Positions 1 through 32,497 of a DNA stretch of 32,497 nucleotides are shown here, in pieces. The translations under genes and the position numbers were made by a program. The notes beneath the pieces were generated by a model, which saw only the letters and a list, made by a program, of their open reading frames with translations, was not told the origin of the DNA and did not search any database. The stretch comes from Escherichia phage vB_EcoM-569R9: sequence record ON470601. The stretch is one strand, 5' to 3'. Positions within the stretch are counted from its first letter, which is position 1; each line of letters opens with the position of its first letter.

Positions 1-699
1 TCATGAAGCAGAAACCATCAGATAGCCGCGACCACGCAAGGTTTTAAACCACGGGTGACCATCTTTACGATCCGGCAGTTTACGACGCAGGTTGGAAATG
101 TGCATATCGATAGCGCGGTCGAAAGGCGTCAGGCGCTTGCCCAGCACTTCCTGGCTTAAATGCTCACGGGAAACCACCTGACCCAGATGCTGTGCCAGCA
201 AATAGAGCAGGGTAAACTCCGTACCGGTTAACTCCAGCGTTTGCCCGTCGAAGGTGGCTTCCTGGCGACCAGGATTGAGACTTAAGGCATCAACTTCCAG
301 TGTCGGTGAACCGTTGTCGTTGTTTTGCTGTTGTTCGCTCCAGTGCGAACGGCGCAGGATCGCGCGAATACGTGCCACCAGCTCACGATCATTAAACGGT
401 TTCGGGAGATAGTCATCTGCGCCCAGCTCAAGGCCGAGAACGCGATCAAGTTCACTGCCGCGCGCCGTCAACATAATGACAGGCGTCTGGTGTGTCTGGC
501 GAAGTGCTTTTAATGTGTCGATACCATTTTTCTTCGGCATCATTACATCAAGCAAAAGTAAATCAATGCTGTCGTCCAGAAGATCAAGCGCCTGTTCCCC
601 ATCGTGGGCAACAATCACGTTGAAGCCTTCCATCTCGAGCAGCTCCTTTAATAGGGAAGTCAGCTCTCGGTCATCATCAACTAACAGGATTTTATTCAT
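1..699 (-). CDS. cpxR: CpxR, OmpR-family response regulator of the Cpx envelope stress two-component system; complete gene with stop at nt 1-3
   Basis: 232-aa ORF; N-terminal receiver domain (MNKILLVDDD...DVMMPKKNG) and C-terminal winged-helix; matches the E. coli CpxR sequence as I recall it apart from a couple of substitutions. Confidence 0.95.
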   Translation of the reverse strand: MNKILLVDDDRELTSLLKELLEMEGFNVIVAHDGEQALDLLDDSIDLLLLDVMMPKKNGIDTLKALRQTHQTPVIMLTARGSELDRVLGLELGADDYLPKPFNDRELVARIRAILRRSHWSEQQQNNDNGSPTLEVDALSLNPGRQEATFDGQTLELTGTEFTLLYLLAQHLGQVVSREHLSQEVLGKRLTPFDRAIDMHISNLRRKLPDRKDGHPWFKTLRGRGYLMVSAS

Positions 700-754
700 T
701 GTTTAAATACCTCCGAGGCAGAAATTACGTCATCAGACGTCGCTAATCCATGAC

Positions 755-769
755 TTTACGTTGTTTTAC
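755..769. promoter_or_regulatory. CpxR box (GTAAA-N5-GTAAA, read on the minus strand) in the divergent cpxR/cpxP intergenic region; an additional GTAAA half-site lies at 800-804
   Basis: Plus strand reads TTTACgttgtTTTAC, whose reverse complement is GTAAAacaacGTAAA; location between divergent cpxR and cpxP. Confidence 0.6.
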
Positions 770-845
770 ACCCCCTGACGCATGTTTGCAGCCTGAATCG
801 TAAACTCTCTATCGTTGAATCGCGACAGAAAGATTTTGGGAGCAA

Positions 846-1349
846 ATGATGCGCATAGTTACCGCTGCCGTCATGGCCTCAACGCTGGCAGTCAGTTCAT
901 TAAGCCACGCTGCTGAAGTCGGTTCAGGCGATAACTGGCATCCGGGTGAAGAACTTACGCAGCGCAGTACGCAGAGCCATATGTTCGACGGCATAAGTTT
1001 AACCGAACATCAGCGTCAGCAGATGCGAGATCTTATGCAACAGGCCCGGCACGAACAGCCTCCTGTTAATGTTAGCGAACTGGAGACAATGCATCGCCTT
1101 GTCACCGCAGAAAATTTTGATGAAAACGCTGTGCGCGCACAGGCAGAAAAAATGGCGAATGAGCAAATTGCTCGTCAGGTTGAGATGGCAAAAGTCCGCA
1201 ACCAAATGTATCGCCTGTTAACGCCGGAGCAGCAAGCGGTTTTAAACGAGAAACATCAACAACGAATGGAGCAGTTGCGCGACGTGACGCAATGGCAAAA
1301 AAGTTCATCGTTGAAGCTATTGAGTAGTAGCAACTCACGTTCCCAGTAG
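846..1349 (+). CDS. cpxP: CpxP, periplasmic inhibitor/chaperone of the Cpx pathway (annotated start may be the second ATG at 849)
   Basis: 167-aa ORF with signal peptide ([21 protein letters not shown]) and LTXXQ-type motifs; divergent from cpxR. Confidence 0.93.
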
Positions 1350-1389
1350 TAAACCCTGTTTTCCTTGCCATAGACACCATCCCTGTCTT

Positions 1390-1417
1390 CCCCCACATGA
1401 TGTGGGGGTTTTTTTTA
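1390..1417 (+). terminator. Rho-independent terminator of cpxP
   Basis: Hairpin CCCCCACAtgaTGTGGGGG followed by a run of eight T. Confidence 0.8.
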
Positions 1418-1502
1418 TCAATTACTTACATGCAATAGAAAGTAAAAACAGGTACTTATCGAAAGCTGTAAGGGTTTGGAGCGGTTTCAAAATTTCTTGA
1501 GT

Positions 1503-1521
1503 GTGGACACTATGTGGACAC
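1503..1521 (+). promoter_or_regulatory. Two direct TGTGGACA repeats (Int arm-type binding sites) on the attL side, adjacent to int
   Basis: TGTGGACActaTGTGGACA, 11-bp periodicity; the same motif pair recurs at 32430-32448; matches the P2 Int arm-site consensus as I recall it. Confidence 0.6.
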
Positions 1522-1535
1522 TCAGAGGGGGAAAT

Positions 1536-2546
1536 TTATAACGTCACTCCGCCTTTTAGTGGATTCAGAGCGACGGCATTTTGCAGATAGTCAGGCGCAA
1601 GGTGCGCATAGGCCATCGTCTGCTGAATGCTCGCATGTCCCAGAATCTGTTGCAGTGCGATTATATTGCCCCCATTCATCATGAAATGGCTTGCGAATGT
1701 ATGTCGCAGGATGTGGGTTGCCTGATTGGGTGGTATATCAGGTTTCACTCTGCGTAAAATCCCGCAAAATTTCTCATAATCAACTTTGAATAATTTGGCG
1801 CTGGCCTCCTCTTTAACTTTTTTCTCCAGTTCCTCAGAAATCGGCACGGTTCGCTTTTTACCGTTTTTGGTTTTCAGGAAGGTAACCCTGCAATTTGTAA
1901 TCTGTGCTGGTTTTAGCGTGGCAACTTCCGTCCATCTTCCTCCAGTGCTCAGACATAAAAGCGCGACAAGTAAGTCATCACCAGCCAAAACATTTAACAG
2001 TTTTTCGATTTCTGCTTTTTCCAGGAACGTCATTTCAGGGTTGGCCTCCGCCAGTGGCGGCAGTCCGTGAATTGGGTGTTGCCCGGAAAATTCATCCAAT
2101 TGAATTAATTTTGTGAACATGCCGGATAATCGGTATATGTCACGGTTTATCGTTGCGGCACTGATACCATCACGTAGTCGCATGGAACGATAATCCATCA
2201 AAGCCCTTTTGCTCATCCTGCTCACTGGTATATCACCTATGCCGCTGATGGTTTTGAGTAGATGATTAAACTCTTTTGTTCCATGCTCGTGGTTTTGCCC
2301 GTGATATTTCCACCAGATGTCCAGCAACTCACTCAAAGTCCGGCGGTCTGCTCGCTGGCCTCCCCATTCTTTCTGACTGGCATTGGCGATTGTGTATCGC
2401 TCAAATGCTAGTGCTTCAGCTTTTCTTTCGAATTTCCTGCGGATGCGTTTTCCGTCGCGACCGCGAGGTCTAATGTCCACTTCATAGCGACCATCATCGA
2501 GCTTCTTAATTGCCATAAGAAAGCCCTCCGGCGCTGTATTCACCAT
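1536..2546 (-). CDS. int: Tyrosine site-specific integrase (P2 Int-like); alternative start at the Met of MAIKKLDDGRYEV (nt 2516)
   Basis: 336-aa ORF; C-terminal catalytic region with R...HxxR...Y context (ILRHTFASHFMMNGGNIIALQQILGHASIQQTMAYAHL); position at prophage end next to repressor. Confidence 0.9.
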   Translation of the reverse strand: MVNTAPEGFLMAIKKLDDGRYEVDIRPRGRDGKRIRRKFERKAEALAFERYTIANASQKEWGGQRADRRTLSELLDIWWKYHGQNHEHGTKEFNHLLKTISGIGDIPVSRMSKRALMDYRSMRLRDGISAATINRDIYRLSGMFTKLIQLDEFSGQHPIHGLPPLAEANPEMTFLEKAEIEKLLNVLAGDDLLVALLCLSTGGRWTEVATLKPAQITNCRVTFLKTKNGKKRTVPISEELEKKVKEEASAKLFKVDYEKFCGILRRVKPDIPPNQATHILRHTFASHFMMNGGNIIALQQILGHASIQQTMAYAHLAPDYLQNAVALNPLKGGVTL

Positions 2547-2585
2547 CTTGGTAGCAAATGATGAAAATGTAATCTTTATATAGAG

Positions 2586-2879
2586 TTAGCCAATCCTTTT
2601 CGCGGAGTGGTTGGACTCTGTTGACTCTGGCCCAATGTGCGCGAGAGCCGGTGCGATTTGTCCTGCGTCCGGCGCGGTTTTATCTGTCATAAGCCATAGA
2701 GCATATTTTTGGAATGTGGGATGCATAGTGATTTTTAGCAAAGCTGTGCCACCGGGTTCAAAGTTTCCTCCTTCATATTTTTTAAGTGTACTTAGTGGTA
2801 AGTCTATGATTTCACAGAATTTTGATTGGCTTAGCCCTTCAGCCTCACGCAAGGCCTTAATCTTTTCGCTTAATTTCAT
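2586..2879 (-). CDS. C: Immunity repressor C (P2 C-like)
   Basis: 97-aa ORF, divergent from cox; HTH-like N-terminus; C-terminal GQIAPALAH segment resembling P2 C; canonical position. Confidence 0.8.
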   Translation of the reverse strand: MKLSEKIKALREAEGLSQSKFCEIIDLPLSTLKKYEGGNFEPGGTALLKITMHPTFQKYALWLMTDKTAPDAGQIAPALAHIGPESTESNHSAKRIG

Positions 2880-2938
2880 TTGACATGGTGCCTATATAGG
2901 GACTAAATTCCCTCAAAACTGGAACCTATATAGGTTCC
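2880..2938. promoter_or_regulatory. Early promoter Pe and repressor operators: -35 TTGACA (2880-2885), -10 TAAATT (2904-2909), two copies of palindrome CCTATATAGG (2891-2900 and 2925-2934, the second within the perfect 18-bp palindrome GGAACCTATATAGGTTCC)
   Basis: Read directly; two operator half-sites flanking the -10 element mirror the P2 O1/O2 arrangement, though here they are palindromic. Confidence 0.55.
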
Positions 2939-3000
2939 ATTGATTTGAGAATAAACCAGCGTCTAAACGGTTTTGAGTGGTTTAGAAAGGGCTGGATCCT

Positions 3001-3288
3001 ATGAGGGTACCATATATGGACGCTGAAAATTATGTGATTCAGTATCCGCTGGATGCGGTTCATGTGGATAAATTTGCTGATTTATTAGGGAAGCCAAAGA
3101 CAGCCGTCAGTGAAATGGTGAAGGCAAATAAATTACCAATTATTGAATTACGTGATCCTTGCAAACCGAAGGCTCGTGCCGGTGAAAAATGGGTTTTCAT
3201 TCCTGAGTTTAATCGCGCTGTACGTGAGGCGTTTTATAACCGACCGGTTGAACAGCGTGATGCATGGCTTTTGTGGATGGGGTTGTGA
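3001..3288 (+). CDS. cox: Cox-like excisionase/transcriptional repressor of Pc
   Basis: 95-aa ORF, first gene of the early rightward operon, divergent from C; weak resemblance to P2 Cox; position. Confidence 0.7.
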   Translation: MRVPYMDAENYVIQYPLDAVHVDKFADLLGKPKTAVSEMVKANKLPIIELRDPCKPKARAGEKWVFIPEFNRAVREAFYNRPVEQRDAWLLWMGL

Positions 3289-3290
3289 TT

Positions 3291-3461
3291 ATGAATGAGC
3301 CGCGTTGTATTGCTCAGTTATTGCGTAACGAAAGCCCCAGGGCGATTGACTTCACCATCACCCACGGGAAGGGACGCAAGGGAATCATTATCCGCACCAA
3401 AAAACAGAGTCCGTTAAAGAAGGCTCTGACCTTTCTGAAAAGCCGGAGAGTCTGGAAATGA
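3291..3461 (+). CDS. Small hypothetical early protein (P2 orf78 position)
   Basis: ORF beginning MNEPRCIAQLL between cox and B; overlaps the B start. Confidence 0.45.
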   Translation: MNEPRCIAQLLRNESPRAIDFTITHGKGRKGIIIRTKKQSPLKKALTFLKSRRVWK

Positions 3462-5044: not shown

Positions 5045-7316
5045 AGCCTCCGGGCGTTTTGTCCCTCCGTCAGCATTTGCCGCAGGCACCGGTGAGACGT
5101 TTACCGGTGCTTATGCATGGAACGCGCCACGCGAGGCCGTCGGGCGCGAAAGACCCCTTACACGTGACGAGATGCGTCAGGTGCAAGGTGTTTTATCCAC
5201 GATTAATCGCCTGCCTTACTTTTTGCGCTCGCTGTTTACTTCACGCTATGACTACATCCGGCGCAATAAAAGCCCGGTGCACGGGTTTTATTTCCTCACA
5301 TCCACTTTTCAGCGTCGTTTATGGCCGCGCATTGAGCGCGTTAATCAGCGCCATGAAATGAACACCGACGCGTCGTTGCTGTTTCTGGCAGAGCGTGACC
5401 ACTATGCGCGCCTGCCGGGAATGAATGACAAGGAGCTGAAAAAGTTTGCCGCCCGTATCTCATCGCAGCTTTTCATGATGTATGAGGAACTCAGCGATGC
5501 CTGGGTGGATGCGCATGGCGAAAAAGAATCACTGTTTACGGATGAGGCTCAGGCTCACCTGTATGGTCATGTTGCTGGCGCTGCACGAGCTTTCAATATT
5601 TCCCCTCTCTACTGGAAAAAATACCGTAAAGGACAGATGACCACGAGGCAGGCTTATTCTGCCATTGCCCGTCTGTTTAACGATGAGTGGTGGACTCATC
5701 AGCTTAAAGGCCAGCGTATGCGCTGGCATGAGGCGTTACTGATTGCTGTCGGGGAGGTCAATAAAGACCGTTCTCCTTATGCCAGTAAACATGCCATTCG
5801 TGATGTGCGTGCGCGCCGCCAGGCAAATCTGGAGTTTCTTAAATCATGTGACCTTGAAAACAGGGAAACCGGCGAGCGCATCGACCTTATCAGTAAGGTG
5901 ATGGGCAGTATTTCTAATCCTGAAATTCGCCGGATGGAGCTGATGAACACCATTGCCGGTATTGAGCGTTACGCCGCCGCAGAGGGTGATGTGGGGATGT
6001 TTATCACGCTGACCACGCCGTCAAAGTATCACCCGACACGTCAGGTCGGAAAAGGAGAAAGTAAAACCGTCCAGCTTAATCACGGCTGGAACGATGAGGC
6101 ATTTAATCCAAAGGATGCGCAGCGTTATCTCTGCCGCATCTGGAGCCTGATGCGCACGGCATTCAAGGATAATGATTTACAGGTCTACGGTTTGCGTGTC
6201 GTCGAGCCCCACCACGACGGAACGCCGCACTGGCATATGATGCTTTTTTGTCATCCACGCCAGCGTAACCAGATTATCGAAATCATGCGTCGCTATGCGC
6301 TCAAAGAGGATGGTGACGAAAGAGGAGCCGCGCGAAACCGTTTTCAGGCAAAGCACCTTAACCGGGGCGGTGCTGCGGGATATATCGCGAAATACATTTC
6401 AAAAAACATCGACGGCTATGCACTGGATGGTCAGCTCGATAACGATACCGGCAGGCCGCTGAAAGACACTGCCGCGGCTGTTACCGCATGGGCGTCAACG
6501 TGGCGCATTCCGCAATTTAAAACGGTTGGCCTGCCGACAATGGGGGCTTACCGTGAACTACGCAAATTGCCTCGCGGCGTCAGCATTGCTGATGAGTTTG
6601 ACGAACGCGTCGAGGCTGCACGCGCTGCCGCAGACAGTGGTGATTTTGCGTTGTATATCAGCGCGCAGGGTGGGGCAAATGTTCCGCGCGATTGTCAGAC
6701 TGTCAGGGTTGCCCGTAGCCCGTCGGATGAAGTTAACGAGTACGAGGAAGAAGTCGAGAGAGTGGTCGGCATTTACGCGCCGCATCTCGGCGCGCGTCAT
6801 ATTCATATCACCAGAACGACGGACTGGCGCATTGTTCCGAAAGTGCCGGTCGTTGAGCCTTTGACTTTAAAAAGCGGCATCGCCGCGCCTCGGAGTCCTG
6901 TCAATAACTGTGGAAAGCTCACCGGTGGTGATACTTCGTTACCGGCTCCCACGCCTTCTGAGCACGCCGCAGCAGTGCTTAATCTGGTTGATGACGGTGT
7001 TATCGAATGGAATGACCCGGAGGTCGTGAGGGCGCTCAGGGGCGCATTAAAACACGGCCTGAGAAGACCAAACCGTCAGCAAAGAAACGGAAGCCCGTTA
7101 AAACCGCATGAAATAGCGCCATCGGCCAGACTGACCCGGTCGGAAAGAATGCAAATTACCCGTATCCGCGTTGACCTTGCTCAGAACGGTATCAGGCCGC
7201 AGCGATGGGAGCTTGAGGCGCTGGCGCGTGGTGCGACCGTAAATTACAACGGGAAAAAATTTACGTATCCGGTCGCTGATGAGTGGAGTTGGTTTTATTG
7301 TTATTCAGAGCAATAA
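5034..7316 (+). CDS. A: Replication initiation endonuclease A (rolling-circle Rep, P2 A-like)
   Basis: About 760-aa product starting MAVKASGRF; contains HUH-type region (PHWHMML) and catalytic tyrosine region (GYIAKYISKN); canonical position. Confidence 0.9.
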   Translation: MAVKASGRFVPPSAFAAGTGETFTGAYAWNAPREAVGRERPLTRDEMRQVQGVLSTINRLPYFLRSLFTSRYDYIRRNKSPVHGFYFLTSTFQRRLWPRIERVNQRHEMNTDASLLFLAERDHYARLPGMNDKELKKFAARISSQLFMMYEELSDAWVDAHGEKESLFTDEAQAHLYGHVAGAARAFNISPLYWKKYRKGQMTTRQAYSAIARLFNDEWWTHQLKGQRMRWHEALLIAVGEVNKDRSPYASKHAIRDVRARRQANLEFLKSCDLENRETGERIDLISKVMGSISNPEIRRMELMNTIAGIERYAAAEGDVGMFITLTTPSKYHPTRQVGKGESKTVQLNHGWNDEAFNPKDAQRYLCRIWSLMRTAFKDNDLQVYGLRVVEPHHDGTPHWHMMLFCHPRQRNQIIEIMRRYALKEDGDERGAARNRFQAKHLNRGGAAGYIAKYISKNIDGYALDGQLDNDTGRPLKDTAAAVTAWASTWRIPQFKTVGLPTMGAYRELRKLPRGVSIADEFDERVEAARAAADSGDFALYISAQGGANVPRDCQTVRVARSPSDEVNEYEEEVERVVGIYAPHLGARHIHITRTTDWRIVPKVPVVEPLTLKSGIAAPRSPVNNCGKLTGGDTSLPAPTPSEHAAAVLNLVDDGVIEWNDPEVVRALRGALKHGLRRPNRQQRNGSPLKPHEIAPSARLTRSERMQITRIRVDLAQNGIRPQRWELEALARGATVNYNGKKFTYPVADEWSWFYCYSEQ

Positions 7317-7388
7317 ACATCTGATTTAATTTGTTGCATAATAGTAAAATTGCTGTTTATCTGCATGTGTTAACTATTGATAATTATG

Positions 7389-7416
7389 TTGCTAATAATG
7401 TGTGCAAATTTATACT
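7389..7416 (+). promoter_or_regulatory. Putative sigma70 promoter for the hotspot cargo gene: -35 TTGCTA (7389-7394), 16-bp spacer, -10 TATACT (7411-7416)
   Basis: Hexamers read from sequence; followed by RBS AGGTG and ATG at 7433. Confidence 0.3.
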
Positions 7417-7432
7417 GAAAAAGGTGAAAACG

Positions 7433-9265
7433 ATGAATGATATCTTTGTTCTTACAAGGGAAGAGCTTGAAACACTAGATTATAGTGTTTTTATGCATAT
7501 ACCAGTTACATTTCATGCACATAAAATAAAAAAATATCTGGATGGGATTGCTGAATCATCAGAAAACCCCAAAGAGAAAAAATTAGCATCTCTTTTTGGT
7601 ATGCTATATAGTTTCAATTTGCAAGTTGTTAACAACACTCCATCATTTGAACCCCAAATGATTTGGGGTAATAAAAGATCAATATTGCCTGAAGATTTTG
7701 ATGAGCAGGTGAATGACTGTCTTTTATATGTTTCTCAAAAAATAACCAATCCATTTTTGTTATCAAGAATATATGATGTTGTTTGGTGTAATAATCGGAA
7801 AAATAAAGACGTGGCAATTAAAGCAATTGATTCCTATGCTGAAATGCTAAATATAGCAATTGAAAAGCTAATAATAAAAAACGAAAGCATGGATGAAAGT
7901 GATTTAAATTGCTTTATTTTTGCTCGTGATTATATTGCTAGGGCTTTGCACATTAATAAAATGGTCTACCCTAGAAAATCAGAAGGAAACATGGCGATTA
8001 AAAATGCCATTCATTCTCTTTATAGTATTCAAAATGAAAGATTAATCTTTGAAGGTTTCAATAATTTGACTTGGTTTATGGTGCGTGATTTTGATGGGTA
8101 TAATCTGCAGTATGCGGAAAATGCTGAGAAGATGGCTGAGCAGCATAAAGATAAAAAATATTATGATGCTGTAAAATCACTTTATATGACAAGTGCAGTT
8201 ATTTATGAAAAAAATGGTGAGTATGAACGTGCCAAGAGATGTAAACTGGCATCTGCAAATATTACTATTAAAGTTGCAACAGATCGACCTGATAATATGG
8301 GTAAGATCTCTTGGTTAAGAACAGCTATCTCTGAATTAAGACAGTACGGTGGTGATAGCCAACAGATAGAAGATTTAAAGGAACAACTTGCTAATTTGAG
8401 AGAAGAAGTAAGGAGTGAATATGTCACTTTAAGCCATTCTATTGATATTAGTGACTTGGTTGCTGAAAGTGAAAAAAAACTGACGGGGCGTTCTTTGCCC
8501 GATATATTCAAAGTTTTAATGAGTGAAACACCGATTGAAAATATTGAAAGCATGAGGGAACAAGTTTTAAAATTATCAGAAAAAAGTTTATTCTCTAGTT
8601 TTGTTGGAACAGAAATTAATGATGAGAGTGGGCGTAAGATATATACAATCCCGCCGTTGGATAATAAAAAAGATATGAGTGATGATGTTGTTATTGATCA
8701 ATATCTAAGAAATTTCGAGATTACTCATAAGATTTTTGTAAACGGTGTCTTTGAACCTGCTCGCTATGTACTTTCTCAAGAACATGGCTTGACGTTGTCA
8801 ACATTCGTTAAATTGGTTACAACTAGTCCAATTGTCAAGCCGGAGTTTAGGGAGATTTTTAATTTGGGCTTTTACAAATTATGGCAGGGAGATTACATCA
8901 GTGCAGCTTATCTTTTAATACCACAAATGGAAGGTATGGTTCGTTATTATTATGAGCTTAGCGGAAAGGATGCTACTAGATATTTGGATAAGGGATTAGA
9001 GGAGTCAACAAGTATTTCTCAGCTTCTAGATAAATGCAGAGATGATTTGGAAAGTATCTTTTCTAAAAATCTTGTTTTGACTATCGATGTTCTTTTTAAC
9101 AGAAAGAGTGGGGCAACCTTAAGACATAAATTAGCACATGGTAATTTATATACTAATGCTTGTTACGATGAAACAACGACATATGCATGCATCCTGATTT
9201 TCTTTCTGTGTGCTTATCCTCTCCTACCATATTTTGATACTGTTTTTGAACAGGGCTCTGTTTGA
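7433..9265 (+). CDS. Orphan ~610-aa cargo protein in the P2 tin/old hotspot; candidate anti-phage defence (abortive infection) protein with C-terminal HEPN-like R-x4-H-G motif (LRHKLAHG)
   Basis: Single long ORF (frame open from 7331; RBS-supported start 7433); AT-rich relative to the backbone; located exactly between A and cos; no Walker A motif so not Old-like; not Tin size. Confidence 0.6.
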   Translation: MNDIFVLTREELETLDYSVFMHIPVTFHAHKIKKYLDGIAESSENPKEKKLASLFGMLYSFNLQVVNNTPSFEPQMIWGNKRSILPEDFDEQVNDCLLYVSQKITNPFLLSRIYDVVWCNNRKNKDVAIKAIDSYAEMLNIAIEKLIIKNESMDESDLNCFIFARDYIARALHINKMVYPRKSEGNMAIKNAIHSLYSIQNERLIFEGFNNLTWFMVRDFDGYNLQYAENAEKMAEQHKDKKYYDAVKSLYMTSAVIYEKNGEYERAKRCKLASANITIKVATDRPDNMGKISWLRTAISELRQYGGDSQQIEDLKEQLANLREEVRSEYVTLSHSIDISDLVAESEKKLTGRSLPDIFKVLMSETPIENIESMREQVLKLSEKSLFSSFVGTEINDESGRKIYTIPPLDNKKDMSDDVVIDQYLRNFEITHKIFVNGVFEPARYVLSQEHGLTLSTFVKLVTTSPIVKPEFREIFNLGFYKLWQGDYISAAYLLIPQMEGMVRYYYELSGKDATRYLDKGLEESTSISQLLDKCRDDLESIFSKNLVLTIDVLFNRKSGATLRHKLAHGNLYTNACYDETTTYACILIFFLCAYPLLPYFDTVFEQGSV

Positions 9266-9604: not shown

Positions 9605-10639
9605 TCAGCCGTTGTCAGTGTCCAGTGAGTAGTTTTTAAAGCGGATGACCTCCTGACCGAGCCAGCCGTTTATCTCGCGGATCCTGTCCTGTAGCGGGAT
9701 AAGCTCATTGCGGACAAAGACCTTTGCCACTTTCTCAATATCACCCAGCGACCCGACGTTCTCCGGCTTGCCGCCCATCAACTGAAAGGGGATGCGGTGC
9801 GCGTCCAGCAGGTCAGCGGCGCTGGCTTTTTTGATATTAAAAAAATCGTCCTTCGTTGCCACTTCACTGAGCGGGATAATTTTAATGCCGTCGGCTTTCC
9901 CCTGCGGAGCATAGAGAAACAGATTTTTAAAGTTGTTGCGGCCTTTCGACTTGACCATGTTTTCGCGAAGCATTTCGATATCGTTGCGATCCTGCACGGC
10001 ATCGGTGACGTACATGATATATCCGGCATGAGCGCCATTTTCGTAATACTTGCGGCGGAACAGCGTGGCCGACTCATTCAGCCAGGCAGAATTAAGGGCG
10101 CTGAGATATTCCGGCAGGCCGTACAGCTCCTGATTAATATCCGGCTCCAGCAGGTGAAACACGGAACCGGGCGCGAAGGCTGTCGGCTCGTTGAAGGACG
10201 GCACCCACCAGTAAACATCCTCTTCCACACCACGGCGGGTATATTTTGCCGGTGAGGTTTCCAGTCTGATGACCTTACCGGTGGTGCTGTAACGCTTTTC
10301 CAGAAACGCATTACCGAACACCAGAAAATCCAGCACAAAGCGGCTGAAATCCTGCTGGGAAAGCCACGGGTGCGGGATAAACGTTGAAGCCAGAATATTA
10401 CGTTTGACGTAAATCGGTGAGCTGTGATGCACGGCAGCACGCAGACTTTTTGCCAGACCGGTAAAGCTGACCGGTGGCTCATACCATCTGCCGTTACTGA
10501 TGCATTCGACGTAATCCAGAATGTCACGGCGGTCGAGTACCGGCACTGGCTCACCAAAGGTGAATGCNNNNNNNNNNNNNNNCGCTGGCGGTCATTTTTT
10601 TTGCCGCAGGTTGCGGTGTTTTCCCTTTTTTCTTGCTCA
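9605..10639 (-). CDS. Q: Portal protein Q (interrupted by a 14-nt N-run at 10568-10581)
   Basis: 313-aa ORF plus N-terminal exon MSKKKGKTPQPAAKKMTAS upstream of the gap; P2 Q-like; position next to terminase. Confidence 0.88.
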
Positions 10640-13498: not shown

Positions 13499-14592
13499 AT
13501 GCGCCAGGAAACCCGCTTTAAATTTAATGCCTACCTGTCCCGTGTTGCCGAACTGAACGGCATCGACGCCGGTGATGNNNNNNNNNNNNNNNNNNNNNNN
13601 CGAAAAAATTCACCGTTGAACCGTCGGTCACTCAGACCCTGATGAACACCATGCAGGAGTCCTCTGATTTTCTGACCAGCATCAACATTGTGCCGGTCAG
13701 CGAAATGAAAGGGGAAAAAATTGGTATTGGTGTCACCGGCTCCATCGCCAGCACCACCGACACCGCCGGTGGCACCGAGCGTCAGCCGAAGGACTTCTCG
13801 AAGCTGGCGTCAAACAAGTACGAATGCGACCAGATTAACTTCGATTTTTATATCCGCTACAAAACGCTGGACCTGTGGGCGCGTTATCAGGATTTCCAGC
13901 TCCGTATCCGTAACGCCATTATCAAACGCCAGTCCCTTGATTTCATCATGGCCGGTTTTAACGGCGTGAAGCGTGCCGAAACCTCTGACCGCAGCAGTAA
14001 TCCGATGCTGCAGGATGTGGCGGTCGGCTGGCTGCAGAAATACCGCAATGAAGCACCGGCGCGCGTGATGAGCAAGGTCACTGACGAGGAAGGGCACACC
14101 ACCTCTGAGGTCATCCGCGTGGGTAAGGGCGGTGATTATGCCAGCCTCGATGCACTGGTGATGGATGCGACCAACAACCTGATTGAGCCGTGGTATCAGG
14201 AAGACCCTGACCTTGTGGTGATTGTGGGGCGTCAGCTACTGGCGGACAAGTATTTCCCCATCGTCAACAGGGAGCAGGATAACAGCGAAATGCTGGCTGC
14301 TGACGTGATCATCAGCCAGAAACGCATCGGTAACCTGCCAGCGGTACGCGTCCCGTACTTCCCGGCGGATGCGATGCTCATCACGAAGCTGGAAAACCTG
14401 TCCATCTACTACATGGATGACAGCCATCGCCGCGTGATTGTGGAAAACCCGAAACTCGACCGCGTGGAGAACTACGAGTCAATGAACATTGATTACGTGG
14501 TGGAAGACTACGCCGCCGGTTGTCTGGTGGAAAAAATCAAGGTCGGTGATTTCTCCACACCGGCTAAGGCGACCGCAGAGCCGGGAGCGTAA
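13499..14592 (+). CDS. N: Major capsid protein N (interrupted by a 23-nt N-run at 13578-13600)
   Basis: Starts MRQETRFKFNAYLSRVAELNGIDAGD before the gap, continues ...FTVEPSVTQTLMNTMQESSDF...; P2 N-like. Confidence 0.9.
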
Positions 14593-14595
14593 CCG

Positions 14596-15337
14596 ATGAC
14601 GAGTCCCGCACAGCGCCACATGATGCGGGTCTCGGCAGCGATGACCGCGCAGCGGGAAGCCGCCCCGCTGCGACATGCAACTGTCTATGAGCAGATGCTG
14701 GTCAAGCTGGCCGCAGACCAGCGCACACTGAAAGCGATTTATTCAAAAGAGCTTAAGGCCGCGAAAAAGCGCGAACTGCTGCCGTTCTGGTTGCCGTGGG
14801 TGAACGGTGTGCTGGAGCAGGGCAAAGGTGCACAGGATGACATTCTGATGACGGTCATGCTGTGGCGTCTGGATACCGGCGATATTGCCGGTGCGCTGGA
14901 GATTGCCCGTTATGCCCTGAAGTACGGTCTGACCATGCCGGGTAAACACCGCCGCACCCCGCCGTACATGTTCACCGAGGAGGTCGCACTCGCGGCCATG
15001 CGCGCTCACGCTGCCGGTGAATCTGTGGATATCCGCCTGCTGACGGAGACCCTTGAACNNNNNNNNNNNTGACATGCCTGATGAAGTGCGCGCAAAGCTG
15101 CACAAAATCACCGGTCTGTTTCTGCGTGACGCTGGTGATGCCGCCGGTGCGCTGGCTCACCTGCAACGTGCGACACAGCTCGACTGTCAGGCAGGCGTCA
15201 AAAAAGAGATTGAACGACTGGAGCGGGAGCTGAAACCGAAGCCGGAGCCGCAGCCAAAAGCGGTCACCCGCGCCCCGCGTAAGACCCGGAGCGTGACACC
15301 GGCAAAACGTGGACGCCCGAAAAAGAAAGCCAGTTAA
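14596..15337 (+). CDS. M: Terminase small/endonuclease subunit M (interrupted by a 10-nt N-run at 15060-15069)
   Basis: Two ORF segments either side of the gap; basic C-terminal tail (RKTRSVTPAKRGRPKKKAS); canonical position. Confidence 0.85.
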
Positions 15338-16434: not shown

Positions 16435-16949
16435 TGCCGGTAATTAACACGCATCAGAATATCGCCGCCTTTCTCGACATGCTGGCCGTGTCCGAAGGGA
16501 CGGCGAATCATCCGCTGACGAAAAACCGGGGCTATGACGTGATAGTCACCGGACTGGACGGAAAGCCGGAAATTTTCACCGACTACAGTGACCACCCGTT
16601 CGCGCATGGCCGACCGGCGAAGGTGTTTAACCGTCGCGGTGAAAAATCCACGGCCTCCGGTCGCTATCAGCAGCTTTACCTGTTCTGGCCGCACTACCGC
16701 AAACAGCTTGCCCTGCCGGATTTCAGTCCGTTGTCACAGGACAGGCTCGCCATTCAGTTGATCCGCGAACGCGGTGCACTGGATNNNNNNNNNNNNNNNN
16801 NNNNNATCCGGGCGGGACGCATTGAGCGCGCCATTTCACGCTGTCGCAATATCTGGGCGTCCCTGCCGGGTGCCGGTTACGGTCAGCGTGAGCATTCACT
16901 GGAAAAACTGGTCACCGTCTGGCGTACCGCCGGCGGCGTACCGGCTTAA
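16434..16949 (+). CDS. K: Endolysin K (lysozyme; interrupted by a 21-nt N-run at 16785-16805)
   Basis: P2 K-like ORF following the holin. Confidence 0.85.
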   Translation: MPVINTHQNIAAFLDMLAVSEGTANHPLTKNRGYDVIVTGLDGKPEIFTDYSDHPFAHGRPAKVFNRRGEKSTASGRYQQLYLFWPHYRKQLALPDFSPLSQDRLAIQLIRERGALDXXXXXXXIRAGRIERAISRCRNIWASLPGAGYGQREHSLEKLVTVWRTAGGVPA

Positions 16950-24970: not shown

Positions 24971-25522
24971 ATGGACTGGAAAGATCTTGCATCAACCGCT
25001 GTGTATACAGGTATGACTGATGAAAATGAAAACATATGGGGACGTGTTGATGGGGTTGACGTTGCCTTCATAGGTGCCTTTCTTACTGCGCACTTGAGCC
25101 TTGAAAAGTATATTACTGATTATCTTGGATTAAGATATCCTTCGTTAGCTTGGGGTGATGCAAAACTCACATTTTCACAAAAAATAGCTTTAATACAACA
25201 TGAGCCTGCAAAACCCCCTTATGATGAAATATATTTAAGAATAAAAGACTTTAACAGCATAAGAAATAAAATNNNNNNNNNNNNNNNNNNNNNNNNNNNN
25301 NNNNNNNTGAATTATCAGATTACGGATAAAGAAAAAAGTAAGTTTGTGGACTTCTACATGAAGATTACTAAAGCCAGTAAAACTAAACCAAATATTGATA
25401 TTGATAACATGGCGGATTTGTTGGATTTTTTCGTATCGATGACAAAATCCTATTTTGCTAGTGCTATTTCTTATTATCACTATAATAAAAAGGTTGCAGG
25501 TAAAAGTAATAAAATTGATTAA
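24971..25522 (+). CDS. Orphan ~180-aa cargo protein in the P2 Z/fun hotspot (interrupted by a 34-nt N-run at 25274-25307); function unknown, candidate exclusion/defence gene
   Basis: ORF with RBS AAAGGA before ATG; AT-rich; between G and FI where P2 carries Z/fun. Confidence 0.5.
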   Translation: MDWKDLASTAVYTGMTDENENIWGRVDGVDVAFIGAFLTAHLSLEKYITDYLGLRYPSLAWGDAKLTFSQKIALIQHEPAKPPYDEIYLRIKDFNSIRNKXXXXXXXXXXXXXNYQITDKEKSKFVDFYMKITKASKTKPNIDIDNMADLLDFFVSMTKSYFASAISYYHYNKKVAGKSNKID

Positions 25523-30960: not shown

Positions 30961-32085
30961 TGCTGGATGCGCTGACATTTGATGCAGGCAGTACGCTGAC
31001 GCCGGATTACATGCTGATGCTCGACAGCAGGGATATTACCGGCAATATCAGCGACCGTCTGATGAGTATGACCCTGACGGATAACCGGGGCTTTGAGGCT
31101 GACCAGCTTGATATTGAACTGAACGATGCCGACGGGCAGGTCGGGCTGCCGGTTCGTGGCGCTGTCCTGACGGTTTATATCGGCTGGAAAGGTTTTGCCC
31201 TGGTATGCAAAGGGAAATTTACCATTGATGAGGTTGAACACCGGGGAGCGCCGGATGTGGTCACCATCCGCGCCCGGAGTGCGGATTTTCGCGGGACGCT
31301 CAATTCCCGCCGTGAAGGCTCCTGGCATGACACCACGCTTGGTGNNNNNNNNNNCCTCCCGTAACAGGCTGGAAGCCAGTGTCGCTCCGTCACTGGCAGG
31401 AATTAAAATCCCGCACATCGACCAGTCGCAGGAGTCTGATGCGAAATTTCTGACCCGTCTTGCAGAACGCAACGGCGGTGAGGTGTCGGTAAAAATGGGA
31501 AAACTGCTGTTTCTCAAAGCGGGGCAGGGGGNNNNNNNNNNCCGCAGCGACGGCGACCGTCATCATTTTGCGATTGCTGACCGTGGAGCCTACACAGGCG
31601 TAACGGCAAAGTGGTTACACACCAAAGACCCGAAGCCGCAAAAGCAGAAGGTAAAACTGAAACGCAAAAAGAAAGAGAAACACCTGCGCGCACTGGAGCA
31701 CCCGAAAGCGAAACCGGTCACGCAGAAGAAAGCGCCAAAAGTACCGGAAGCGCGCGAAGGTGAATACATGGCCGGTGAGGCTGACAATGTTTTTGCCCTG
31801 ACCACGGTATATGCCACGAAAGCGCAGGCCATGCGCGCCGCTCAGGCGAAGTGGGATAAACTGCAACGGGGCGTTGCGGAGTTCTCCATCAGCCTGGCTA
31901 CCGGTCGGGCAGATATTTACACGGAAACACCGGTCAAAGTGTCAGGCTTTAAGCGCGTCATAGACGAGCAGGACTGGACAATCACTAAGGTGACACATTT
32001 TCTGAATAATAGCGGCTTCACGACGTCCTTGGAGCTTGAGGTCAGGCTTTCTGATGTGGAGTACGAAACAGAAGATGATGAGTGA
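30960..32085 (+). CDS. D: Tail protein D (late control gene D family; interrupted by two 10-nt N-runs at 31345-31354 and 31532-31541)
   Basis: Three ORF segments spanning the gaps; canonical position before ogr. Confidence 0.85.
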
Positions 32086-32166
32086 TGTTTTTATTTTATC
32101 TGTTTGTTTTATAAGGATAAATTAACTAAAATGGCACCGTCAACAAAACCGGAAGAGGTGCTCGCG

Positions 32167-32385
32167 ATGTTTCATTGTCCTTTATGCCAGCATGCCGCAC
32201 ATGCGCGTACAAGTCGCTATATCACTGACACGACAAAAGAGCGTTATCACCAGTGCCAGAACGTGAATTGCAGCGCCACGTTCATCACTTATGAGTCGGT
32301 ACAGCGATACATCGTGAAGCCGGGAGAAGTCCACGCCGTAAGGCCGCACCCGTTGCCGTCAGGGCAGCAAATTATGTGGATGTAA
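32167..32385 (+). CDS. ogr: Ogr, zinc-finger late-gene transcriptional activator
   Basis: 72-aa product MFHCPLCQHAAHARTSRYITDTTKERYHQCQNVNCSATFITYESVQRYIVKPGEVHAVRPHPLPSGQQIMWM, essentially identical to P2 Ogr as I recall it; the longer upstream ORF start at 32104 is unlikely. Confidence 0.95.
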   Translation: MFHCPLCQHAAHARTSRYITDTTKERYHQCQNVNCSATFITYESVQRYIVKPGEVHAVRPHPLPSGQQIMWM

Positions 32386-32395
32386 TCACAAAAAT

Positions 32396-32421
32396 AGCCC
32401 CTCAGTTGAGGGGCTTTATTT
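32396..32421 (+). terminator. Rho-independent terminator of ogr
   Basis: Hairpin GCCCCTC-agtt-GAGGGGC followed by TTTATTTA. Confidence 0.75.
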
Positions 32422-32429
32422 ATGGTCGA

Positions 32430-32448
32430 TGTGGACGCTATGTGGACA
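32430..32448 (+). promoter_or_regulatory. Two direct TGTGGAC(G/A) repeats (Int arm-type binding sites) on the attR side
   Basis: TGTGGACGctaTGTGGACA with the same 11-bp periodicity and orientation as the pair at 1503-1521. Confidence 0.6.
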
Positions 32449-32497
32449 GCGTTTGATATAAATCCATTCATATCATCAGGTTAGGTGCTTTTTTGTG

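Follow-up and report, generated by a model that had tools for sequence, protein, structure and literature searches.

attL of a WPhi-type, P2-like prophage at its known site between cpxP and fieF, where the attachment core overlaps the small RNA gene cpxQ

Positions 1373-1535 of the DNA analyzed here (a stretch of 32,497 nt, hereafter the window, whose last base is 32497) are very probably the left attachment site (attL, B-O-P') of a P2-family prophage that carries the WPhi integration module and sits in the WPhi attB already described there, in the spacer that separates cpxP from fieF. This is a known system, a P2-like prophage of the WPhi type in its usual and frequently used site, of which attL is seen here; the overlap with cpxQ and the side of the crossover, read from a natural polymorphism, are small additions to it. 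Host DNA forms the left end of the window, with cpxR (1-699, minus strand) and the cpxP coding sequence (846-1349, plus strand), the latter taken from the list of open reading frames and from RefSeq annotation of identical DNA in other genomes. To the right of the left pair of arm sites lie int (1536-2516, minus strand), encoding a tyrosine integrase of 326 aa with the Pfam domains Int_N and Phage_integrase, the gene for the C immunity repressor, a helix-turn-helix (HTH) protein (2586-2879, minus strand, Pfam HTH_3), and cox (3001-3288, plus strand, Pfam Phage_Cox), whose product is the excision directionality factor and Pc repressor. The last prophage gene is ogr (32167-32385, plus strand, RefSeq annotation of ogrK on identical DNA), and its terminator (32396-32423, plus strand), recovered in a terminator scan and aligning with the annotated P2 ogr terminator, stands left of the right arm pair. 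The gene set from int to ogr is P2-like, and the original prediction of a P2-like prophage directly 3' of cpxP was borne out, with int following the left arm pair and ogr preceding the right one.

The integrase and the attachment site both point to WPhi. Over its full length Int is identical to WPhi Int at 321 of 326 positions (98%) and to P2 Int at 52%, and matches to PF00589 (1.1e-19) and PF24624 (Int_N, 4.5e-28) identify it as a tyrosine recombinase of the heterobivalent kind. Its relatedness to WPhi Int includes the variable core-binding domain, and the core sequence and the location of attB are likewise those of WPhi. The 45-mer at 1375-1419 was found exactly in the attP of WPhi (records AY135739 and AJ245959), of L-413C and of KC618326 and is absent from P2, and in alignment all 47 nt of the block agree with WPhi and L-413C. 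An attP rebuilt from the two window ends aligned over its full length with the attP of WPhi and L-413C and was collinear with the annotated P2 attP, in the order ogr terminator, P arm, IHF, core, Cox, P' arm and int. WPhi and L-413C are reported to integrate at the same E. coli site, MG1655 position 4104392 (PMC3448106 Table 1), the L-413C attP core is the WPhi core (PMC3448106), and the E. coli W genome is listed with 'cpxP-fieF: Wphi1 (P2)' (PMC3032704 Table 2). In NC_000913.3 the core occupies 4106344-4106390. The versions of the MG1655 sequence presumably differ by 1,977 bp in length, and after subtraction of 1,977 bp the core stands at 4104367-4104413, so that the published position 4104392 falls inside it. 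A length of 47 nt has probably also been published for the WPhi core. The integration sites of P2-like coliphages were reportedly typed by Karlsson et al. in 2006.

The element is nevertheless distinct from WPhi itself (Peduovirus Wphi). It shares with WPhi the integrase, the 47-nt core, the P and P' arm repeats, the P-arm/IHF region and the cpxP-fieF (yiiP) site, but its repressor is only 56% and its Cox only 82% identical, and the spacer from core to P' (the presumed Cox region) has diverged; the element is therefore of another immunity type, equipped with the integration module of WPhi. L-413C (a 'Yersinia' P2-like diagnostic phage) and KC618326 ('Escherichia phage P2', from O157:H43 T22) show 98.9-99.6% nucleotide identity from the core through P' and int to the start of C and an attP that is nearly base for base the same; Cox is 99% identical to that of L-413C. 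Both are free phage genomes, whereas the window holds an integrated form. From these comparisons, the element has the integration module of WPhi, a Cox like that of L-413C and a repressor that differs from WPhi C. With P2 it has in common the architecture, spacing and arm consensus of attP and the orientation of ogr and int on either side of the site. It differs from P2, which uses locI and locH, in its integrase, in an unrelated core (27 bp in P2, 47 bp here) and in its chromosomal target, and the hallmarks of the classical P2 loci (locI, locH, locII, locIII), a 27-bp P2 core or a P2 Int, are lacking. P2-type elements have also been listed at cyaR (PMC3032704 Table 2).

The core was defined by a four-way comparison of attB, attL, attR and attP. 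The longest exact match between attL and attR, which we designate the common core (O), is 47 nt, GACACCATCCCTGTCTTCCCCCACATGATGTGGGGGTTTTTTTTATC, and lies at 1373-1419 of the window and at 3398-3444 of the corresponding attR locus (L001). In the prophage-free O157 strain FRIK2069 the cpxP-fieF spacer is 148 bp; attL matches it up to 1419 and attR matches it from the first core base onward, and phage-only DNA thus starts at 1419/1420, where the match to prophage-free genomes ends. The attR copy of the core begins with a G at 32497, the last base of the window, the other 46 nt lying just past the window and being followed by fieF. Genome Ecol_867 is 100% identical to the window over 32100-32497 and continues ACACCATCCC...TTTTTTTTATC; its sequence past the window end reads ACACCATCCCTGTCTTCCCCCACATGATGTGGGGGTTTTTTTTATC, and fieF starts 79 nt further on. 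From such genomes, identical up to the window end, the window's own prophage would carry the same attR copy of the core. The original prediction had placed the junction between the cpxP terminator and the arm repeats; the core instead contains the terminator, and the exchange lies left of position 1400. It had rightly seen no core shared by 1418-1502 and 32449-32497: the core lies mostly left of the first interval and was missed because neither of the two contains it. The suspicion that the attR core lay at or beyond the window edge was correct, and the alignment it proposed, with DNA past 32448 and with an empty cpxP-fieF region, did yield the core and attB, although mostly left of 1418-1502.

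Most of the core is part of a small RNA gene, a target that the original prediction had overlooked. The 58-nt sRNA cpxQ, from the cpxP 3'UTR, is intact at attL (1359-1416, plus strand), starting 10 nt past the cpxP stop as in the MG1655 RefSeq annotation (ncRNA cpxQ, b4716) and differing from the K-12 sequence by a single base, at 1400. The core is made up of the 3' 44 nt of cpxQ, terminator included, and 3 further bases, and spans nt 15-58 of the 58 nt of CpxQ. The intrinsic terminator of cpxP and cpxQ (1390-1416, plus strand), recovered both by terminator scan and by folding, lies within the core and consists of an 8-pair hairpin at 1390-1408 and a T8 run at 1409-1416; of the span 1390-1417 originally given for it, the hairpin and T-run are present and the right end is off by one. 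CpxQ is predicted to fold into two hairpins (-17.4 kcal/mol, z = -2.7). It is known as an Hfq-dependent sRNA cut by RNase E from the cpxP 3'UTR and conserved above all other parts of cpxP (PMC9438474). A scan of the window, L001 and a second locus (L002) against Rfam gave no match to a CpxQ family at the gathering threshold, so that cpxQ is assigned here from the RefSeq annotation of MG1655 and from the literature. The sole matches at gathering level in that scan, both to the ES036 (CssrF) sRNA at 38-40 bits, lay outside the window between pfkA and sbp (L001 5646-5687; L002 4822-4863, minus strand).

From cpxP through the T-run attL equals attB, the loop allele excepted. Because nt 15-58 of CpxQ lie within the core, the gene is restored at attL on integration, just as a tRNA gene is by phages that insert into it. 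The arrangement resembles 3' targeting of tRNA and tmRNA genes, as by 186 in tRNA-Ile and by Fels-2 and SopEPhi in ssrA (PMC3448106), in that the stretch of identity reaches from the crossover as far as the 3' end of a gene for a small structured RNA, the gene is intact at attL, a displaced 3' fragment is left at attR and the target is conserved across genera. It differs in that the target is an Hfq-dependent sRNA derived from an mRNA 3'UTR and the integrase is of the P2 type rather than the 186 type. A search of the available literature library recovered no paper linking CpxQ with phage integration; in the only one that contained both 'CpxQ' and 'integrase', the latter was a cloning tool.

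The site is widely used. Placement next to cpxP had been called uncommon in the original prediction, which the data contradict: this is the published attB of WPhi and L-413C, and it is occupied in approximately 790 of 5426 complete E. coli genomes (15%). The attL junction was present in 793 of the 5426 (at least 80% coverage of window 1300-1700, that is, cpxP, core, P' and int) and the attR junction in 790 (at least 80% of an 80-nt probe). Beyond E. coli, a scan with one genome per species recovered the exact 47-mer at 22 loci in 21 genomes. At 21 of these loci it stands directly 3' of cpxP, and the remaining one is a prophage attR end beside ogr and fieF. Among the genera are Erwinia and Edwardsiella, whose CpxP shares just 51-53% identity, together with Yokenella, Citrobacter, Kluyvera, Pluralibacter, Entomohabitans and Salmonella, and in four loci (Yokenella, Citrobacter, Kluyvera and an unclassified Proteobacteria MAG) an integrase 75-85% identical to that of the window adjoins the core. 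A mainly phage-borne origin of the exact 47-mer in distant genera was ruled out, since the 5' 14 nt of cpxQ, which lie upstream of the core and are not carried by the phage, are equally conserved; the conservation is native and not a phage footprint. Because CpxQ is so extremely conserved, the same 47-mer is on offer from Escherichia to Erwinia and Edwardsiella, with integrases of 75-85% identity adjoining it.

Other elements were encountered at the same spot. In S. enterica subsp. houtenae (AGRM01000004.1, L032 2297-26236) the cpxQ attachment site has turned into a genomic island of approximately 24 kb between the cpxQ core and fieF, carrying genes for a microcin-type ABC transporter, an autotransporter and IS elements, and flanked on one side by a decayed P' arm and a 3' int stub and on the other by a decayed P arm and a degenerate core. 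A 1.8-kb element without integrase in Citrobacter amalonaticus (L014 1045-2929) has an exact core and a copy with 4 mismatches, flanks resembling the P' and P arms, and genes for a 339-aa protein without Pfam match and a 154-aa Fic/DOC protein; it is either a cargo-only remnant or a small element mobilized in trans. The 1.4-kb insert of Erwinia aeris (L023 4999-6528) combines an exact core at cpxP with a second copy with 9 mismatches, so that the attL (functional cpxQ) copy is perfect and the one at attR has diverged, the pattern to be expected under selection on attL alone. In E. coli GN02461 (L040) the cpxQ T-run is followed neither by the fieF spacer nor by a P2-type P' arm (GTGCACAGAAAACCCCCAGCTAGGCTGGGGG...), and some other insertion appears to occupy the same spot. 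Two records labeled Enterobacter hormaechei, CP169086.1 (L019) and CP170191.1 (L020), have an E. coli-like spacer, with CpxP and FieF 100% and CpxR 99% identical to those of E. coli, and look like mislabeled E. coli genomes.

The side of the core on which the strands cross can be read from position 1400, a polymorphic base of the terminator hairpin loop. The window, every phage attP examined and most E. coli have A there, and K-12-type hosts have C. With allele-specific 47-mers picked so that each 28-nt megablast seed spans base 1400, the A-allele core was found in 4488 genomes at 5153 places, and the C-allele core, present in 1088 genomes, was single-copy in each of them (1088 places). The two genome counts together exceed 5426 by 150, which points to approximately 150 mixed genomes, the lysogens of C-type hosts; these are partly clonal, and the allele counts cover clonal relatives. 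Strain M217, the sole lysogen read at both junctions, has the phage allele A at attL and the host allele C at attR, and the attR of strain 98-3133 likewise reads C. The genome collection yielded no full-identity match to an attL with the C allele, and records with a second place, the signature of C at attR, showed the same attL identity as A/A lysogens of the same flank type. The crossover thus falls at the 5' side of the identity block, as seen at both junctions of M217 and in agreement with the collection counts. Because A stays at attL and C at attR, the exchange lies left of 1400 and the functional cpxQ terminator of the lysogen is phage DNA.

A limit on the left comes from the phages. In four Peduoviridae genera (WPhi/L-413C, SI7, ev239 and SEN5) the attP begins to match attB at 1373-1375, and a Citrobacter attR does so at 1375. 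Together with the 1400 allele, these starts confine the strand-exchange (overlap) segment to 1375-1399. By analogy with tRNA-gene sites the exchange most likely occurs near the left edge of the core, at approximately 1375-1383. The first predicted hairpin of CpxQ contains a 5-bp inverted repeat, AGACA/TGTCT, around the 7-nt CCATCCC, which may be the site of exchange. Two further sources for the left limit were set aside: the four host variants of the 47-mer that were retrieved have their changes right of 1400 or past the T-run and give no left limit, and the copy in the Erwinia remnant is too mutated. In E. coli O178:H19 (L037) and O111:H8 (L038) a G to T change was observed at the equivalent of 1408, the last base of the terminator stem, and the same allele is present in the attP of phage SEN5; this could be the trace of a lysogeny resolved by homologous recombination, or a coincidence.

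Inverted core sites around an overlap of 6-8 bp are the rule for tyrosine recombinases, and the terminator stem, a perfect 9+9 palindrome centered at 1399, would make a natural pair of core-type sites of the kind assumed for P2, whose 27-bp core also holds a small dyad. The exchange could on these grounds be centered on the terminator, with the inverted stems CCCCCACAT/ATGTGGGGG as core-type Int sites, the overlap at approximately 1396-1402 and the rest of the core a passenger. We consider this unlikely. It places position 1400 inside the overlap, where heterology should depress integration, yet occupancy derived from the allele counts is approximately 14% in C-type and 15% in A-type hosts, a similarity that argues against 1400 lying in the overlap. 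It also predicts both allele arrangements, whereas M217 has A at attL and C at attR, a C at attL was not seen at full identity, and the C-allele core is never present twice in a genome. An exchange left of 1400, with an overlap that may end at 1399, is in better agreement with these alleles.

We also considered whether the prophage is a fixed, defective relic whose attachment sites, arm repeats and core are fossils. Degraded elements do occur at this site (the 24-kb island of S. houtenae and the int-less remnants of 1.4-1.8 kb in Erwinia and Citrobacter), and part of the window sequence is hidden by N-runs. Seven of these lie inside the prophage (10568-10582, 13578-13600, 15059-15069, 16785-16805, 25273-25307, 31345-31354 and 31532-31541), and its intactness can for this reason be judged only in part. 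Against a relic, however, the two copies of the core and the four arm sites are all perfect and none of int, C and cox is truncated, int and cox being 98-99% identical to those of the plaque-forming phages WPhi and L-413C, and length and gene order, from the list of open reading frames, are normal for P2. We therefore regard a relic as quite improbable, and the window's prophage as probably still active in recombination. The window between the two junctions is 23 nt longer than in Ecol_867, while both window ends are 100% identical to that genome and to several others; near 31532 the flanks are out of register with Ecol_867, indicating that at least one N-run replaces a stretch of different length. 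Two further reading frames in the prophage deserve mention. A 644-aa open reading frame (7331-9265, plus strand) directly after replication gene A, the usual P2 cargo position, matched Pfam DUF7380, DUF4209 weakly, and the PADLOC candidate defense system PDC-S39 (8.5e-85), and is probably a prophage-borne anti-phage gene. Between the tail-fiber and tail-sheath genes a 183-aa open reading frame (24971-25522, plus strand) had no Pfam or PADLOC match, and the call is unreliable because the N-run at 25273-25307 falls inside it.

Arm-type sites for the integrase were found at both prophage ends. The P' arm carries two direct Int arm-type sites TGTGGACA, 11 bp apart (1502-1520, plus strand), and the P arm carries direct sites TGTGGACG and TGTGGACA, likewise 11 bp apart (32430-32448, plus strand); they align with the annotated P' and P arms of P2, respectively. 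Exact copies of TGTGGACA stand at 1502-1509, 1513-1520 and 32441-32448, and TGTGGACG at 32430-32437. Repeat pairs at both ends had been part of the original prediction, with the right pair placed correctly and the left pair one base too far right (1503-1521), and its assignment of the TGTGGACA pairs to Int, as arm-type sites in P' of attL and in P of attR, is well supported. P2-type integrases have the arm-repeat consensus tgTGGaCa (PMC3448106), and direct repeats of this form on both sides of the core place the present integrase with the P2 type and not the 186 type. That the pairs are instead chance repeats or operators for C or Cox is hardly credible: the octamer by itself is not significant (3 matches against 0.95 expected, with 3 reached in 10 of 100 shuffles), but the 19-nt tandem form TGTGGAC-N4-TGTGGACA occurs exactly twice in the window, once per prophage end and on the same strand, and in 0 of 100 shuffles, and the pairs align with the experimentally annotated Int arm footprints of P2 and fit the published consensus (PMC3448106). 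Equally implausible is a crossover at a short, undetected core within 1418-1502, as originally proposed, for although phage-only DNA does begin in that interval, at 1419/1420, the DNA from 1420 to 1501 shares nothing with the attR side, the only shared block is 1373-1419, and the phage allele at 1400 in attL places the exchange upstream.

The remaining parts of the attachment site were assigned by comparison with P2. A pattern search gave a predicted IHF site, TATCATCAGGTTA (32471-32483, plus strand), a single match with one mismatch to the consensus WATCARNNNNTTR, located where P2 has an annotated IHF footprint. The phage DNA between the core and the P' arm sites (1420-1501) is presumed by position to be the Cox-binding region, the equivalent 86-bp interval of the P2 attP being annotated as a Cox footprint in the alignment. 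A search of 1420-1501 for repeated k-mers, including k-mers shared with the Pe-Pc switch region, recognized no Cox boxes; its only outcome, a weak pair of AT[AC]GAAAG, was set aside.

In the integration reaction that we propose, the N-terminal domain of the heterobivalent Int would bind the TGTGGACA arm-type sites in P' and P, while its core-binding domain would bind core-type sites within the 47-bp block. IHF would bend the P arm at approximately 32471-32483, and Cox, bound between the core and P', would direct excision. Strand exchange left of 1400, with cleavage most likely at approximately 1375-1383, would rebuild an intact cpxP-cpxQ transcription unit at attL in which, given an exchange on that side, the DNA from the crossover to the end of cpxQ is supplied by the phage. 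A promoterless, 5'-truncated copy of cpxQ with its terminator would be kept at attR, between the ogr terminator and fieF; upstream of the attR core, the window showed no promoter-like site on the plus strand.

The WPhi attB was defined before CpxQ was discovered. It is now seen to be the cpxQ gene, and it joins the P2-family sites at the sRNA genes cyaR and rybB (PMC3032704 Table 2) and at ssrA and tRNA genes (PMC3448106). The natural A/C polymorphism of the terminator loop makes the side of the crossover readable from public genomes without experiment. For studies of CpxQ in natural isolates, approximately 15% of E. coli carry a second, truncated cpxQ, along with a cpxQ whose 3' half is phage-derived. 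The WPhi-type attP carries three-quarters of an envelope-stress sRNA, and lysogens run a chimeric cpxQ with a phage-supplied 3' part; during lytic growth the 5'-truncated copy resides in attP, and in the lysogen it is part of attR. It is conceivable, if rather a long shot, that WPhi-type phages use cpxQ as more than a landing pad, with the truncated copy in attP or attR, if read through from ogr, yielding a CpxQ-like RNA tied to the Cpx response. Were this the case, the RNA might affect the targets of CpxQ or be a competitor for Hfq.
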